DNA of 52,892 nucleotides from a virus (Duplodnaviria; Caudoviricetes), in IMG/VR virus record IMGVR_UViG_3300003937_000378, positions 1 through 52,892 of that record. One strand, written 5' to 3'. Under the pieces are notes generated by a model, which did no database searches, was not told the origin of the DNA, and saw nothing but the letters and a program-made list of their open reading frames with translations. This document shows, one piece after another, positions 7,557 through 44,668 of the stretch; position 1 is the stretch's first letter, and each line of letters starts with the position of its first letter. Both the position numbers and the translations under genes were made by a program.

Positions 7557-7605
7557 TATGCGTGCCGTCTCGACTCGTGAGACAAGCCGCTCCCAGAGTA
7601 CGCCC

Positions 7606-8088
7606 ATGCAGTCCCTCCCCCTTCCCCACACCTTGGCGCAGCCCATCGGCCCGGCGCTGATCGACGGCCCGGCGCAGTTCGTGCCCTTGGCAGCAGCGCG
7701 CGCGCGGCTGGGCTTCCCGTCGCCGGCCGACGACTTCATGGATGAAGCGATCGACCTGCACCGCCTGCTGGTGCGCAACCCGGCCGCCACGTTCCTGTAC
7801 CGGGCCGATGGCTGGTCCATGAGCGGCGCCGGCGTCAGCGATGGGGACATCCTGGTGGTGGACCGGTCGGTGACGCCGCTGGCCGGTGACCTGGTCATCG
7901 CCATCTGGGATGGAAACCAGCCCACCTGCAAGGTGCTGCAGCTGTTCGAGAACCACATGGAGCTGCACTCGGCCAACCCAGACTTCCCGCCCATCGTGCT
8001 CGAGCAGGCCATCGAGGTTGAGGTGTTCGCTGTGGTGGGGGTCGTCCGCCAGATCAAGCGCCGGGGCGGCCATGTTCGGGCTCGTTGA
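7606..8088 (+). CDS. umuD: UmuD-like S24 peptidase (Pol V subunit)
   Basis: GFPSPADD, GWSM (Ser), GDILVVDRS, TCK (Lys). Confidence 0.93.
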   Translation: MQSLPLPHTLAQPIGPALIDGPAQFVPLAAARARLGFPSPADDFMDEAIDLHRLLVRNPAATFLYRADGWSMSGAGVSDGDILVVDRSVTPLAGDLVIAIWDGNQPTCKVLQLFENHMELHSANPDFPPIVLEQAIEVEVFAVVGVVRQIKRRGGHVRAR

Positions 8089-9322
8089 TGGGAACAACTT
8101 CTATGCCAGCTGTGAGCGGGTGTTTCAGCCGGCGCTGCGCGGCGTGCCGCTGGTGGTGCTGAGCAACAACGACGGCTGCGCGATCGCGCGCTCGGCGGAG
8201 GCCAAGGCCCTGGGCATCAAGATGGGCCAGCCGGCCCACGAGCTGAAACACCTGGTGCGTCGCCACGGTCTGCAGATGCGCTCGGCGAACTTTGGCCTGT
8301 ACGGCGACATGAGCGCTCGCGTCGTGACCATCCTGCGAGAAGCCGCGCCCCGGGTGGAGGTCTACAGCATCGATGAAAGCTTCATCGATCTGGAGGGCGT
8401 GCGGGACCGCGAGCGGTTCGCCCGGGATCTGCGGCAGCGCGTGCACCGATGGACCGGCATACCCAACTGCATCGGCATCGGGCCGACAAAGACGCTGGCC
8501 AAGCTGGCCAACAAGGTGGCCAAGACCGCCGACGGCGTGATCGACCTTGGGGACGCCGCCTACAGAGCCTCGGTGCTGCAGACCTTCCCCGTTGGTGATC
8601 TGTGGGGCGTTGGCCGCCGGCTGGCACCGCGGCTGGAAGCCATGGGCATCAGCACGGCGGCTGCTCTGCGCGACGCGCCGGCGGACGACATCCTGGCCAT
8701 CTTCGGGGTGACGCTCGCGCGCACCCAGCGCGAACTGCAAGGCCACTCCTGCATGGAGCTGGAAGAGGTGGAGCCGGACCGGCAGCAGATCATGGTCAGC
8801 CGATCATTCGCTGACCGAGTCGAGGACCACGAAGCCGTTGCCCAGGCGCTGGCCACCTTCGCCGTGCGCGCCTGCGAGAAGCTGCGTGCCCGGGGCCTGG
8901 TCACCGCCGGCGTGTGGGTGTTCGCCCATTCGGACGTATTCCGGCCGGAGCTGCGGCAGCACAACGCCAGCAGGACCGTGGGCCTGCCCGCGTCGACCGC
9001 AGACACCACCGTGGTGCTGGGCGTCGTGCGCAAGCTGCTACGCGGCCTGCTCCGCGACGGCATTGGATACAAGAAGGCCGGGGTGGCGCTGCTGGACCTG
9101 GCCCGGCCAGATGAGCTTCAGGAGGATCTGTTCGGGCCGACGGTGGTCGGCAACGAGAGGCTGATGGCCACCATGGACCGGATCAACCAAAAATTCGGCC
9201 GCGGCACGGCCGGCCTTGGCGCATCGGGTTGGCAGGCGCGGCCAGCGTGGGGCATGCGGCAGCACATGCTGTCGCCGAACTACACGACCTCCGTGCACGA
9301 GATCCCGCCGGCGCGATGCTGA
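8072..9322 (+). CDS. umuC: Y-family DNA polymerase V catalytic subunit
   Basis: LVDGNNFYASCE, VVLSNNDGC, YSIDE, W.MRQ..LSPNYTT C-terminus; start moved to 8072. Confidence 0.96.
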   Translation: MFGLVDGNNFYASCERVFQPALRGVPLVVLSNNDGCAIARSAEAKALGIKMGQPAHELKHLVRRHGLQMRSANFGLYGDMSARVVTILREAAPRVEVYSIDESFIDLEGVRDRERFARDLRQRVHRWTGIPNCIGIGPTKTLAKLANKVAKTADGVIDLGDAAYRASVLQTFPVGDLWGVGRRLAPRLEAMGISTAAALRDAPADDILAIFGVTLARTQRELQGHSCMELEEVEPDRQQIMVSRSFADRVEDHEAVAQALATFAVRACEKLRARGLVTAGVWVFAHSDVFRPELRQHNASRTVGLPASTADTTVVLGVVRKLLRGLLRDGIGYKKAGVALLDLARPDELQEDLFGPTVVGNERLMATMDRINQKFGRGTAGLGASGWQARPAWGMRQHMLSPNYTTSVHEIPPARC

Positions 9323-9390
9323 TGCGCGGGCCAAAGGCCCGTGCCTGGCGGGAACCTGCGGCCGCCAGAAGGCGGCCGCAGGGGTGTGGA

Positions 9391-9825
9391 TCAGGCCGGG
9401 TCGTCCAGGTGATCCAGCACGCTCTCCTTCCACTTCAGCTGCTGCACGTCGGTGCCAGCGAGCTGCTTCTTGTGGACCTGCAGCAGCACGCTGAAGGCCT
9501 TGCCGGCCTCAGTGGGGCACCACAGCCCATCACGCTTCTCCTGAAGGCCATGCTCCACCAGCAGGCGGTTGAACTTCTGGGGAGACAAACCCATGCGCCG
9601 ACCGAGGTCGGTGGGCGTGAAGAAGCGGATGCCGTCCACGTGGACCGCTACCGGCCCAGCCGACAGTGCGCCGGGCAGAGGCGGGGGCGGCACCTGGTTG
9701 GCCGCAGCCAACAGGGTAGCCAGAGGAACCTGGGAGGCCTCACTCAAATGGGACAGTGAAACCTGTTCCAATTTCGTAAATTCCGAAATTGATAAACCGC
9801 TCGTAACTTCATGTTTCTTAAACAT
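9391..9825 (-). CDS. DNA-binding protein with antirepressor-type (KilA-C/ANT-like) C-terminal domain
   Basis: FFTPTDLGRRMGLSPQKFNRLLVEHGLQ...W.PTEAGK...QLKW; ATG 9825 with AGGAAG SD. Confidence 0.7.
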   Translation of the reverse strand: MFKKHEVTSGLSISEFTKLEQVSLSHLSEASQVPLATLLAAANQVPPPPLPGALSAGPVAVHVDGIRFFTPTDLGRRMGLSPQKFNRLLVEHGLQEKRDGLWCPTEAGKAFSVLLQVHKKQLAGTDVQQLKWKESVLDHLDDPA

Positions 9826-10121
9826 TTTCACGCTTCCTGTAGGTAGGAGCATGAACCATCGGGAGGTTGACCTTATACGCCTAGGCGATAAGATCAACTC
9901 CGTTCTAATCGCCTAGCGATTACTCGCGCGGCGGCAGGACGGGAGCATTGATCGATTGGCGTCGATCTCCGCTTCTCCCGATGGCCATGCCATTGGTACA
10001 ACACGTTTAGTTTTGCGCGACCCTGAGGCTGACCTGATAGAAGGCCTCGGGGTTTTGCGTTTTGTGGGTCAGACCCGTTGAACTAGACCCGTCGAATTGG
10101 GCTACCGACACCACGGGCCTG

Positions 10122-10150
10122 AAGATAGTGGGGGTGTTGGGGGCCGTCAA
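10122..10150 (-). promoter_or_regulatory. sigma70-like promoter for the 9391-9825 gene
   Basis: TTGACG-N17-TATCTT on the minus strand. Confidence 0.6.
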
Positions 10151-10449
10151 CGCTAAATGTAGTGAATTCTGGTAATCCCTTGCGCCGCAAGCGTCATGCC
10201 ATCGGCGCCGATCAGAGGTGGTCTAGACCTGCTTGGGAAGGCTGCGCAGTCAAGCCCGATGGGCGTCACATCGGCGGTACAACGTGCTGCGGAAAGGGAA
10301 CAGTGACAGCTTCACACGACACGTAGCCGGCGGCCATGGACGGTGCTGTGGATAACCAGCGGGCAACGGTGCACGCCTGGATCGCATCCGCGCGGTGCTC
10401 GGCAAACAAGTACACGCGTCGCGCACGGCGGCGGGCATACCCTTCGGCC

Positions 10450-11115
10450 ATGTGCGGCCGCTTCGTCCAGCTTCCCGTTGTCGACTTCGGCCTGCCCGAC
10501 TTGGCGGACCTCGCCCCTGGCTTGGCCGAGATCCAGCCCAGCTTCAACCTGGCCCCCACCCAGCGCGCGGCGGTCATTCTTGACCGCGGCGAAGGCCGGC
10601 AGGTCACCCGTATGGCATGGGGCCTCCTGCCATTCTGGGCGAAGACCAAGGGCATGCAGGGCAAGGCGATCAACGCGCGCATCGAGACGGTAGCCACCAA
10701 GCCCGCATTCCGCACCGCGTTCAAGAATCGCCGCTGCGTCGTCCCCATGGCCGGCTACTACGAGTGGTCGGAAAACCCGGAGGACGGCGGCAAAGACCCG
10801 TGGTTCATCCACGCAGCCGGGCCGCTGCTGGCGGCCGGCCTGTGGGAAGACACCAGCCCGCTGCTGCCCGATGGCAACCTGGGCACCTTCACAATCATCA
10901 CAGGCGACAGCAGCGGCGTCTCGGCGGACATCCACGACCGCATGCCGGTGTGGCTGCAAGCCGGCCAGATTGATGAATGGATGGCCGTAGGGCCAGATAA
11001 CGCAATGGCCATGCTGCTGGCCAGCACGCCCCCGTCTATGGAGGCGTACCGGGTGAGCCGGGCTGTGAACACGGCCGGCAACAACAAGCAACAGCTGCTG
11101 CAAGCTATTTCTTAG
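10450..11115 (+). CDS. SOS response-associated peptidase (SRAP/YedK/HMCES), abasic-site protection
   Basis: N-terminal MCGRF, NARIET, GYYEW, IHDRMPV. Confidence 0.95.
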   Translation: MCGRFVQLPVVDFGLPDLADLAPGLAEIQPSFNLAPTQRAAVILDRGEGRQVTRMAWGLLPFWAKTKGMQGKAINARIETVATKPAFRTAFKNRRCVVPMAGYYEWSENPEDGGKDPWFIHAAGPLLAAGLWEDTSPLLPDGNLGTFTIITGDSSGVSADIHDRMPVWLQAGQIDEWMAVGPDNAMAMLLASTPPSMEAYRVSRAVNTAGNNKQQLLQAIS

Positions 11116-43646: not shown

Positions 43647-43889
43647 TCACACCGCGTCGACCGGCACGATCCGGTCAGCGTCCGGGTCGTTTTCCGGAGG
43701 TCGCTCAAGCGCTTGGAAGTGGGCTGGCATCAGCACGAAGCGCAGCTTCAGCGCCCAAAGATCGTCGATCTGGCCATCGGGCCACTGATAGACAGCCGAC
43801 GGCGTGATTCCGAGAGCGCGTGCGAGCGCGGCGGCATTGCCGTCGTAAGCGGCAATGGCTTCTTCCTTGGTGATCCGGGGCATGTTCAT
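43647..43889 (-). CDS. cro: Cro-like repressor
   Basis: KEEAIAAYDGNAAALARALGITPSAVYQW, divergent from cI. Confidence 0.9.
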   Translation of the reverse strand: MNMPRITKEEAIAAYDGNAAALARALGITPSAVYQWPDGQIDDLWALKLRFVLMPAHFQALERPPENDPDADRIVPVDAV

Positions 43890-43900
43890 GCCGCCCATAT

Positions 43901-43960: not shown

Positions 43961-44668
43961 ATGACTACAGCCCTCGCTACCCGCCTGAAGCGCGCACGAA
44001 CTGAGTGCGGCATTACCGAACCCGCTGATGCCGCGCGTCGTGCTGGCATCACCGCATCAGCTCTGTACCAGCTGGAGGACGGCAAGACGAAGTCGCTCAG
44101 CGGCGAGACGGCGGTGAAGCTGGCCCGTGTCTACAAGCCTTTTCGGGTCGAATGGCTGATCACTGGTGAGCTCCCTGAGCGCTGGGACGAGTCTCATGGG
44201 TCCTCGATATCAGACGGTGAGACACCCGCTGGCTATGTTCGCCTTCGAGTAATGGAAGGCGAGGCTTCAGGGGGCTTTGGCGCAATGAATCAGGATTACC
44301 CGGATGTGGTCCGGGAGCTCGACATCGCGGAGTGGCAGGTTCGCCAACAGCTGGGCTTCGTGCCCGAGGGTGACCGCGTGCGCCTGGTGACCGTGCGCGG
44401 GGACTCGATGTATCCCGACATCAAGAATGGCGACGTGGTGTTCGTGGACGTCGCCAAGGACTACTTCGACGGCGATGGCCTGTATCTGATCAATCTGCAT
44501 GGGCTGACCTACGTCAAACGCCTGCAGCTGCTGCGGGATGGCCTGCACGTCATCAGCACCAACCGGAAGTACCTCAGCGAGGTAGTTCCTCCCCACGAGG
44601 CTGATCAGCTGCACGTGGGTGGCAAGATTTTGGGCCTGGCGCTGCTGCGCAGCGCGCAGGAAGTCTGA
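43961..44668 (+). CDS. cI: CI repressor (HTH + S24 autopeptidase)
   Basis: Xre HTH, SGG cleavage region, RGDSMYP, YVKRL. Confidence 0.95.
   Translation: MTTALATRLKRARTECGITEPADAARRAGITASALYQLEDGKTKSLSGETAVKLARVYKPFRVEWLITGELPERWDESHGSSISDGETPAGYVRLRVMEGEASGGFGAMNQDYPDVVRELDIAEWQVRQQLGFVPEGDRVRLVTVRGDSMYPDIKNGDVVFVDVAKDYFDGDGLYLINLHGLTYVKRLQLLRDGLHVISTNRKYLSEVVPPHEADQLHVGGKILGLALLRSAQEV

Follow-up and report, generated by a model that had tools for sequence, protein, structure and literature searches.

The proviral record IMGVR_UViG_3300003937_000378 of IMG/VR, 52,892 bases long and a Stenotrophomonas prophage, is referred to here as the window, and the present analysis concerns a structured leader in it and the control of the small gene behind that leader. 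The element lies inside a 624-nt gap between this minus-strand gene, which runs from ATG 9825 to 9391 and encodes 144 amino acids (aa), and a plus-strand gene for an SRAP protein (Pfam SRAP, 2.5e-55; MCGRF start at 10450). The genes umuD and umuC are found at 7558-9322, again on the plus strand. A preliminary description, made from the letters of the window, had proposed a heavily structured leader or non-coding RNA of about 290 nt in front of a small DNA-binding gene. The RNA structure that it described is confirmed; it did not include that half of the signal belongs to the opposite strand, nor that the leader has a promoter copied from the region controlling host nrdAB. The parts of the locus are collected in Table 1.

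Table 1. Features assigned at the locus, with their positions in the window, their strand and the analyses on which each assignment is based.
Feature	Positions	Strand	Basis
144-aa protein gene, variable N-terminus, conserved KilAC/antirepressor-like C-terminal domain	9391-9825	-	Pfam, Foldseek, tblastn
Sense leader RNA of the KilAC-like gene, ~290 nt	9826-10115	-	Fold, alignment, covariation
SL1, first leader stem-loop, hypervariable sequence	10068-10113	-	Folding energy better on the sense strand in 13/15
5' arm of P1, the long stem that closes the four-way junction	9975-9994	-	Alignment fold, covariation counts
3' arm of P1; shares nucleotides at its lower end with the SD hairpin (5' arm)	9845-9865	-	Alignment fold
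Ha hairpin, GATCGA/TCGATC core (9950-9967) plus extension helix	9944-9973	-	Compensatory changes to TACCGA/TCGGTA
Hb hairpin, apex TAATCGC/GCGATTA	9900-9942	-	7/9 apex pairs compensatory
Hc hairpin, DNA holds the antisense promoter	9866-9898	-	Lower stem invariant, upper stem covaries
SD-sequestering hairpin just before ATG 9825	9827-9855	-	Drawable in 15/15
Copy of the host nrdAB upstream control region, 206 bp, ending at the predicted transcription start	10116-10321	-	blastn
Sense promoter, -35 TTGACG (10150-10145), 17-nt spacer, -10 TATCTT (10127-10122), start ~10115	10122-10150	-	Promoter scan
NrdR-box-like motif 1, TCACTACATTTAGCGT, overlapping the -35	10150-10165	-	6/6 conserved positions
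NrdR-box-like motif 2, CCCCACTATCTTCAGG, overlapping the -10, 16-bp linker after box 1	10118-10133	-	4/6 positions
Antisense promoter, -35 TTGACC, 16-nt spacer, -10 TAAGAT, predicted start ~9901	9867-9894	+	Promoter scan, conservation
Predicted antisense RNA, ~165 nt, hairpins Hb', Ha', H2' and T'	~9901-10066	+	Alignment fold
H2', 8-bp hairpin of the antisense RNA	9978-9996	+	99.2% paired, U-G pairs
T', intrinsic terminator, long stem then UUUUGCGUUUU-type tail	10015-10066	+	Pairing, energy, terminator script

The inverted repeats and palindromes that had first drawn attention to the region were all found where they had been placed. The outer arms are GCATGAACCATCGGGAG (9849-9865) and CTCCCGATGGCCATGC (9975-9990), within which a repeat search recovered perfect 10/10 arms at 9856-9865 and 9975-9984; the near-palindrome lies at 9862-9901, TAATCGC-CTA-GCGATTA at 9906-9922 and GATCGA-TTGGCG-TCGATC at 9950-9967. 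When 9826-10000 was folded, the minus strand reached -82.5 kcal/mol (z -7.44) and the plus strand -79.9 kcal/mol (z -5.81), and on neither strand was any of 200 shuffled sequences as good. For the whole 305-nt leader (10115-9811) z was -6.88, a value matched by none of 100 shuffles. The length of 290 nt corresponds to the distance from the conserved promoter to ATG 9825. These fold scores, this distance and the conservation in 15 sequences described below bear out the idea of a heavily structured leader.

An alignment fold of 15 distinct leaders with RNAalifold placed a long stem, P1, around three hairpins, Ha, Hb and Hc. P1 pairs GGYGGCAUGGCCRCCAAG with CUUGGUGGUUCAUGCYCC over 17-20 bp, and among its 17 counted pairs 96.9% of the cells are paired and 6 pairs are compensatory. 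The Shine-Dalgarno sequence (SD) of ATG 9825 is AGGAAG (9838-9833, minus strand) and the stem closes right next to it, just as the preliminary description had it. The SD itself is contained in the 3' arm of a local hairpin that can form in all 15 sequences with stems of differing sequence, for example CAUGCUCC/GGAAGCAUG, GUCUCCG/CGGAGAC, CCAUCC/GGAUGG and CUCCA/UGGAG; these hairpins were read by eye because MAFFT does not align them in register. Since 3-8 nt are common to P1 (in its 3' arm) and the SD hairpin (in its 5' arm), the full P1 stem and the SD hairpin are mutually exclusive, and the alternative pairings of GGAG and CTCC segments suggested earlier find their place in this overlap. On the sense strand, Hb (~9895-9942) is followed by the U-rich GUUGAUCUUAU, which our script scores as terminator-like in 8 of the 15 leaders. 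SL1 contains in the window a tandem 12-nt duplication (AGACCCGTTGAA / AGACCCGTCGAA at 10071-10096) that is present in no other of the 15 leaders. A possible leader peptide was considered and rejected; the lone recurrent AUG, in the loop of H2, lacks an SD at a suitable distance and is missing in two leaders (L005 and L147).

Relatives of the element were collected starting from the 144-aa protein, a search with which led to 13 viral loci whose upstream DNA showed a conserved promoter, a conserved hairpin and covarying stems. Further relatives were obtained by pattern scans, profile searches and genus-wide searches. A pattern scan of metagenomes returned 78 loci, five of which were matched by the leader profile (L116, L139, L147, L148 and L181) and two of which were new (L147 and L148); a 17-nt pattern returned 4 loci, none of them a relative in the nhmmer scan, and among the 72 loci of a later pattern scan nhmmer found no new member. 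Twenty-three pattern-bearing stretches of this leader type became 12 when duplicates were collapsed. Rows dropped as duplicates were L116, L139, L181, L188, L190 and L191, with L109 as a partial duplicate, and L189 was added; the final set of 15 consists of the window, L002-L009, L032, L062, L074, L147, L148 and L189. The distribution is sporadic. BLAST detected the element in 4 of 147 species-representative Stenotrophomonas genomes, a covariance model run over 147 Stenotrophomonas genomes found the same 4 with strong scores and 2 weak matches (E ~7e-4), and in a family-wide sample it was present in 1 of 401 genomes, namely the centre genome itself. A blastn search with 9826-10335 against deposited phages and plasmids gave no match.

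The comparison of homologous loci and a covariance model had been named in the preliminary description as the way to check the structure, and the 15 distinct sequences speak for it. In the sense structure 94.7% of 864 cells are standard pairs, compared with 87.5 +/- 0.7 in shuffles, a count in which cells overstate the number of independent events because the 15 sequences include close relatives. Changes on both sides were seen in 21 of 58 pairs (12.4 +/- 1.9 in shuffles, 4-10 in six slid controls) and the covariation score was 0.254 (0.135 in shuffles, 0.05-0.10 in slid controls); for the paired cells, the compensatory pairs and the covariation score alike, none of 500 shuffles reached the observed value. 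The structure drawn for the antisense strand is 96.1% paired, with 16 of 43 pairs compensatory, and again none of 500 shuffles came up to it. Ha, the apex of Hb and the upper part of Hc differ in sequence between lineages and retain their pairing.

The alignment also permits a decision on which strand carries which structure. A G-U pair becomes an A-C mismatch on the complementary strand, so that G-U pairs show the strand under selection. In P1, 30 G-U cells in sense orientation stand against 3 A-C cells, and a U-G pair in the lower stem of Hc is likewise oriented for the sense strand in all 15 sequences. T' and H2' read on the plus strand contain 71 G-U cells and a single unpaired cell; they are paired to 100% and 99.2%, respectively, only when read in this direction, and the basal U-G pairs of H2' occur in 13 and 12 of the 15 sequences. 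The folding energy of the terminator region is better on the plus strand in 15/15 sequences, by 6.1 kcal/mol on average, and so is that of H2 (15/15). For the junction with P1 the minus strand is better in 12/15 (mean 7.6 kcal/mol), and for Hc the sense strand is better in 11 sequences and the antisense strand in 1. Judged from these alignments, P1 and its adjoining hairpin fit a minus-strand leader only, and the terminator with its neighbouring hairpin fits a plus-strand RNA only.

A promoter scan of 9300-10600 found two promoter-like sites, one on each strand, where shuffled sequences gave 0.2 +/- 0.5, and no further site on the plus strand in this interval. The plus-strand site is located in the DNA of Hc, about 125 nt upstream of the T' hairpin. 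Its -35 hexamer is invariant in 15/15 sequences and its -10 hexamer in 14/15 and the spacer between them varies; fixed hexamers around a variable spacer are more in keeping with a promoter superimposed on an RNA hairpin than with RNA constraint alone. T' is read as an intrinsic terminator of plus-strand transcription because UUUUGCGUUUU follows the hairpin on the plus strand and a run of A residues precedes it on the minus strand. The antisense RNA predicted between these two signals folds in the window with -73.8 kcal/mol (z -4.54; none of 200 shuffles as good). We infer that both RNAs are made and that they pair with each other.

The promoter of the sense leader is part of a DNA segment shared with the host. 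This segment (10116-10321) is 80-84% identical over 204-210 nt to DNA upstream of the nrdA leader in five chromosomes of the S. maltophilia group, as found by blastn, and 75% identical in a sixth host genome (L088; the loci compared were L044, L047, L063, L084, L088 and L099). The homology stops at the predicted transcription start, and the host genes downstream encode, according to Pfam, the large and then the small subunit of ribonucleotide reductase (RNR). All relatives of the element have the sense promoter in identical or nearly identical form. Its exact 21-nt core was found at 66 loci in species-representative genomes, nearly all from Stenotrophomonas, Luteimonas and Pseudoxanthomonas, and most of these loci precede a long leader and an RNR large-subunit gene, which is followed by the small-subunit gene. 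The promoter copies were compared in a tree, whose branch support was not assessed, and in an identity table, which suggest that phage lineages differ in the host clade whose nrdAB region they are most like: type-A copies are nearest to hosts of the S. maltophilia group, and the copies of L035, L027 and L036 are nearest to the L037/L071 group. This pattern hints at repeated capture of the host control region or at recombination with the host.

PMC13584703 describes an NrdR site as two 16-bp boxes that are 15-16 bp apart, with C4, A6, A8, T9, T11 and G13 as highly conserved positions, and reports 'box 0' of Escherichia coli nrdAB as non-binding. The two motifs at the leader promoter start 32 bp apart, which leaves a 16-bp linker and agrees with the spacing rule of that paper. 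As to the conserved positions, all six are present in box 1 of 22 of 23 phage promoters, that of the window among them. Box 2 has five of the six positions in 15 of the 23 phage promoters, four in 6 of them (the window included) and three in 2, and it has five in all 29 distinct host promoters. NrdR control of the leader promoter is plausible on the strength of these motifs. Two points count against it: box 1 was part of the search pattern for many of the loci, so that its perfect score is partly due to construction, and box 2 has a C at position 6 like the box 0 reported there as non-binding, with G13 missing in the window as well.

The protein encoded behind the leader has about 55 variable N-terminal residues followed by a highly conserved part (residues ~56-140). 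The protein of the window matches the Pfam family ANT (KilAC, PF03374) with 13.7 bits and an E value of 0.079, below the gathering cut-off of 25.3 bits; two relatives score 18.2 and 19.7 bits, also below the cut-off, and at E<0.1 the family is matched by 31 of 36 homologues (best value 2.6e-4). An AlphaFold model (mean predicted local distance difference test score, pLDDT, 76) had four Foldseek matches in BFVD at E<=1e-3, of which two are named antirepressor, one is a repressor-domain protein and one is unnamed, and the search of the same model against the PDB gave no match at E<=0.001. By tblastn the C-terminal half was found in 12 deposited phage records, 10 of which are annotated as antirepressor at the match. 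The gene product is KilAC- or antirepressor-like, and its action may be that of an antirepressor.

The same host-like promoter is also found in front of other leaders. Eight phage leaders of unrelated sequence (L011, L012, L026, L027, L030, L035, L036 and L087) occupy ~250-280 nt after the shared promoter. Without exception the 23 phage leaders, 15 as described above and 8 of other types, contain a terminator-like site in antisense orientation, located between leader positions 41 and 65. Seven of the eight other-type leaders contain an antisense sigma-70-like promoter that scores 9-11 out of 12, for example TTGACA-16-TATGAT. The genes behind them belong to KilA-N (82.9 bits) and AntA/AntB antirepressor (83.9 bits) families or are KilAC-like below the threshold. 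From the recurrence of promoter, terminator and gene family it appears that the conserved unit is an nrdAB-like promoter, an antisense RNA gene and an antirepressor-type gene, and that the body of the RNA is exchangeable. The hexamer TTGGCG of the window's Ha' loop recurs in L026, in the loop of its antisense terminator hairpin.

Taken together, these data probably reflect a prophage module in which two overlapping convergent RNAs gate a KilAC/antirepressor-like gene, a reading in which we place moderate confidence. A sigma-70-type promoter within the copy of the nrdAB region would start the 290-nt leader (10115-9826, minus strand), which would be composed of the variable SL1, the four-way junction with P1 around Ha, Hb and Hc and, finally, the SD hairpin. 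The base of P1 and the SD hairpin would compete for the same nucleotides, and a complete P1 would tend to free the SD. The promoter in the Hc DNA would produce a plus-strand antisense RNA of ~165 nt, whose terminator would end it with about 50 nt to go to the sense start. Being fully complementary to the stretch between the terminator region and Hb, in which the 5' arm of P1 is contained, this RNA could pair with the first two-thirds of the leader. The 3' arm of P1, deprived of its partner, would then be available to the SD hairpin, and translation would be held back. Cleavage of the duplex and collision of polymerases are possible additions. To obtain the protein, strong sense transcription, probably under the control of NrdR and of deoxynucleoside triphosphate (dNTP) or replication status, would have to outrun the antisense RNA. 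Deletion of the antisense-covered part of the leader in a folding model lowered the unpaired probability of the SD in 15/15 sequences, clearly in 13, with a change of the median from ~0.40 to 0.04. In this reading, the antisense RNA would act against translation and NrdR would bind at the promoter.

It is conceivable that this arrangement has a wider meaning. Stenotrophomonas prophages may have copied the nrdAB control region with its NrdR operator to drive KilAC, KilA-N and AntA genes, each buffered by a convergent antisense RNA. The phage would then read dNTP or replication stress through NrdR, an input apart from LexA/RecA, and the antisense RNA would set the threshold. We put this forward tentatively, as a possibility that we would not yet rely on.

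Several observations weigh against the proposed two-RNA module. In the deletion model the presence or absence of the 5' part makes practically no difference to the predicted burial of the SD in the window itself (0.26 versus 0.25). The 15 sequences include close relatives and amount to an effective number of 1.61 (cmbuild). A standard terminator scan did not return T', because its loop exceeds the size that the scan allows, and the hairpin is seen only in a purpose-written script and in the alignment fold. RNA data are of little help: the raw reads of two RNA runs (X23 and X24) contain 0 reads on the stretch and hence provide no test. Contigs from two other libraries match it, three from the RNA library X6 at 100% identity (9670-9899, 10017-10167 and 10178-10328) and four from the soil metatranscriptome X11 at 90-99% identity, and they carry no strand, so that they are no proof of transcription. 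One X11 contig (9752-10066) ends at the terminator tail and starts upstream of the predicted antisense start; its end at 10066 may equally be the place where conserved sequence meets the hypervariable SL1, and we treat the contig as neutral evidence. The third contig of X11 (10122-10176 plus 244 other letters) joins the promoter region to a host-type nrdA leader and, with DNA from upstream of the start in it, may indicate an upstream promoter or DNA carry-over in the library. Attenuation at the terminator-like site after Hb may be a part of the control. Finally, an antirepressor is not obviously needed for induction because the phage has a CI of its own with an S24 domain. The divergent pair of a CI-like repressor gene (HTH_3 and Peptidase_S24, 43961-44668) and a Cro gene (43647-43898) gives the prophage a classical, probably RecA-sensitive switch besides the antirepressor-like gene.

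Some of these points would be accommodated by a leader that acts in cis only, as a minus-strand switch that binds a protein or ligand, senses temperature or attenuates transcription. The plus-strand promoter and terminator would then not delimit a functional RNA gene, and the terminator would merely shield the nrdAB-like promoter and the SRAP gene from transcription that runs through from umuDC. The strong covariation of the sense structure is as expected for such a switch, P1 and the SD hairpin exclude each other without any partner RNA, a sense terminator-like site follows Hb in about half of the leaders, and the antisense RNA is not shown in the RNA data. An RNA acting in cis only does not explain why the -35 and -10 hexamers in Hc are invariant while the other helices covary freely, why H2' is plus-strand specific in 15/15 sequences, which a mere insulator does not need, or why matching antisense promoters recur in 7 of 8 unrelated leaders; nor did any Rfam riboswitch model match the leader, at the gathering score or at E<=10. 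We regard this explanation as rather unlikely, though worth keeping in mind. Lower still, and quite improbable in our view, stands a lock of the c4/IsrK type, in which the junction would be cut from the leader and act from the same strand, its loops pairing with the ribosome-binding site (RBS) of the gene behind, as P1 c4 RNA does for icd-ant. A closing stem with three hairpins before an antirepressor-type gene does resemble c4 cassettes, SD-like and anti-SD-like words (GAAGC / GCUUCC) occur within the junction, and a true C4 RNA is present elsewhere in the window: Rfam detects a C4 antisense RNA at 1446-1528 (72.8 bits) and its a1b1 target at 1610-1662 (49.6 bits) on the minus strand, a second, catalogued RNA lock in the record. 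For the leader itself, in contrast, none of the models of C4, c4-a1b1, IsrK and sRNA-Xcc1 gives a hit, not even at E<=10, the variable bases that flank the SD covary, by eye, with the local hairpin arm only and with no loop of the junction, and the plus-strand-specific terminator, hairpin and promoter would be left unexplained.

The palindromes might also be sites in the DNA rather than RNA structure, serving as operators of a dimeric repressor or of the KilAC protein, or forming cruciforms. TAATCGC-CTA-GCGATTA and the adjoining palindrome share the word TCGCCTAG and lie between two convergent promoters. As a shared operator this word was rejected, for it occurs 2 times where 1.33 are expected and 41 of 100 shuffles are as good. 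The sequences of the palindromes are not conserved and their pairing is maintained by two-sided changes (7/9 in the Hb apex), and strand-specific G-U pairs are meaningless for double-stranded sites, all of which makes this explanation very improbable. The resemblance to a retron or another reverse-transcribed non-coding RNA, noted earlier on account of nested hairpins closed by inverted repeats, did not hold up, and we give this reading next to no probability. A search for RVT_1 (PF00078) in the 52.9-kb record found no reverse transcriptase, as had been observed before, and was positive in control genomes, and the gene downstream is KilAC-like.

The preliminary description had also called the RNA undescribed, and Rfam agrees. 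At the gathering score C4/a1b1 is found only at 1446-1662, with no family matching the leader, and a cmscan of 9700-10500 at E<=10 gave only a viral pseudoknot and Atu_C10, whose 19.4 bits fall short of its gathering score of 60; the Rfam search proposed as a check thus assigned the leader to no family at either level, which together with the covariation leaves an undescribed structured RNA in front of a small gene of DNA-binding type. Scans for tRNA and tmRNA found none. In the literature, as far as the main texts of freely accessible journals go, we found neither this RNA described nor any phage antirepressor gene with NrdR boxes in front of it.

In outline, the antisense silencing proposed here would work like that of CopA/CopT and of Inc RNA/repZ. 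In both, CopA/CopT-repA of plasmid R1 and Inc RNA-repZ of ColIb-P9, a convergent, multi-hairpin antisense RNA that ends at a terminator is made from a promoter inside the leader, and the in silico counterparts at our locus are the promoter at 9867-9894 within the leader and the plus-strand-specific terminator at 10015-10066. In these systems, as here, the antisense RNA covers the upstream leader and not the RBS and would act indirectly, on a long-range interaction near the start. The element differs in being non-homologous, in its location in a prophage instead of a replicon and in the gene it precedes, which is antirepressor-like and not a replication initiator. Moreover, there is no conserved leader peptide coupled to the gene, and the long-range element is an ordinary 17-20-bp helix and not a pseudoknot. 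UUGGCG is reportedly named as the Inc RNA loop motif in the 1998 work of Asano et al., and the same hexamer forms the loop of the antisense hairpin in the window. A recognition loop of this UUGGCG or YUNR type is, in contrast to CopA and Inc RNA, not conserved: the Ha' loop is exact in 1 of 15 sequences, that of the window, and reads UUGCCG, UUGCAG or CUCCAA in others. Of the earlier hint at an antisense system, the convergent antisense RNA has thus gained comparative evidence, and the UUGGCG loop from which the hint was drawn turned out to be no feature of the family.

Antisense control of antirepressor genes is known from phages as well. In the immI region of P22, the sar RNA is likewise encoded in cis opposite the leader of a phage antirepressor gene, ant. 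It is ~69 nt long and overlaps the RBS of ant, whereas the RNA predicted here has ~165 nt, starts ~75 nt upstream of ATG 9825 and leaves the RBS uncovered. The c4 RNAs of P1 and P7 and their kin (RF01695, RF03163, IsrK, sRNA-Xcc1; clan CL00128) are also structured RNAs before antirepressor-type genes; they are transcribed from the strand of their target, whose RBS they pair with, whereas the second RNA of the present locus lies opposite its target and the leader matches no member of the clan. Control by a host repressor has precedents, too, in the antirepressors Tum of phage 186 and AntC of N15. The antirepressors of Gifsy prophages are LexA-controlled according to PMC3121763, and this resembles the present case in placing a prophage antirepressor-type gene under the operator of a host stress repressor; the difference is that the operator here is NrdR-like, is part of a 206-bp nrdAB copy and is combined with a layer of antisense RNA. 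The NrdR operators of RNR operons, as presented in PMC13584703, likewise have two 16-bp boxes with a 16-bp linker; the gene behind the promoter here is not an RNR gene, and its box 2 is degenerate.

The locus would add an uncatalogued family of structured RNA, a leader with its cis-antisense RNA, that has strand-resolved comparative support, and with it the small set of RNA locks on phage antirepressor genes, among which countertranscript control is already known in kind, gains a further member. Its most unexpected feature is the copy of the nrdAB promoter with NrdR-box-like motifs before antirepressor-type genes in several phage lineages. If NrdR controls this promoter, the decisions of Stenotrophomonas prophages would be tied to the sensing of the nucleotide pool in the way other prophages tie their antirepressors to LexA. 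Such a connection, if true, would provide an input for induction or cross-talk that is separate from LexA/RecA.

Two smaller observations concern the surroundings of the module. Within the AT-rich 5' part of the 144-aa gene, a palindromic TCACT-N10-AGTGA is found at 9740-9762, the nucleotides of which are kept in most relatives; it could be a site for a protein or merely reflect the conserved codons of VSLSHLSE. The nrdAB leaders of Luteimonas and Pseudoxanthomonas (L039, L058, L060, L061, L067, L075, L080, L082 and L083) contain the stretch GGGAAGCCGGTGA ... GCACTG, which may be cobalamin-riboswitch-like.

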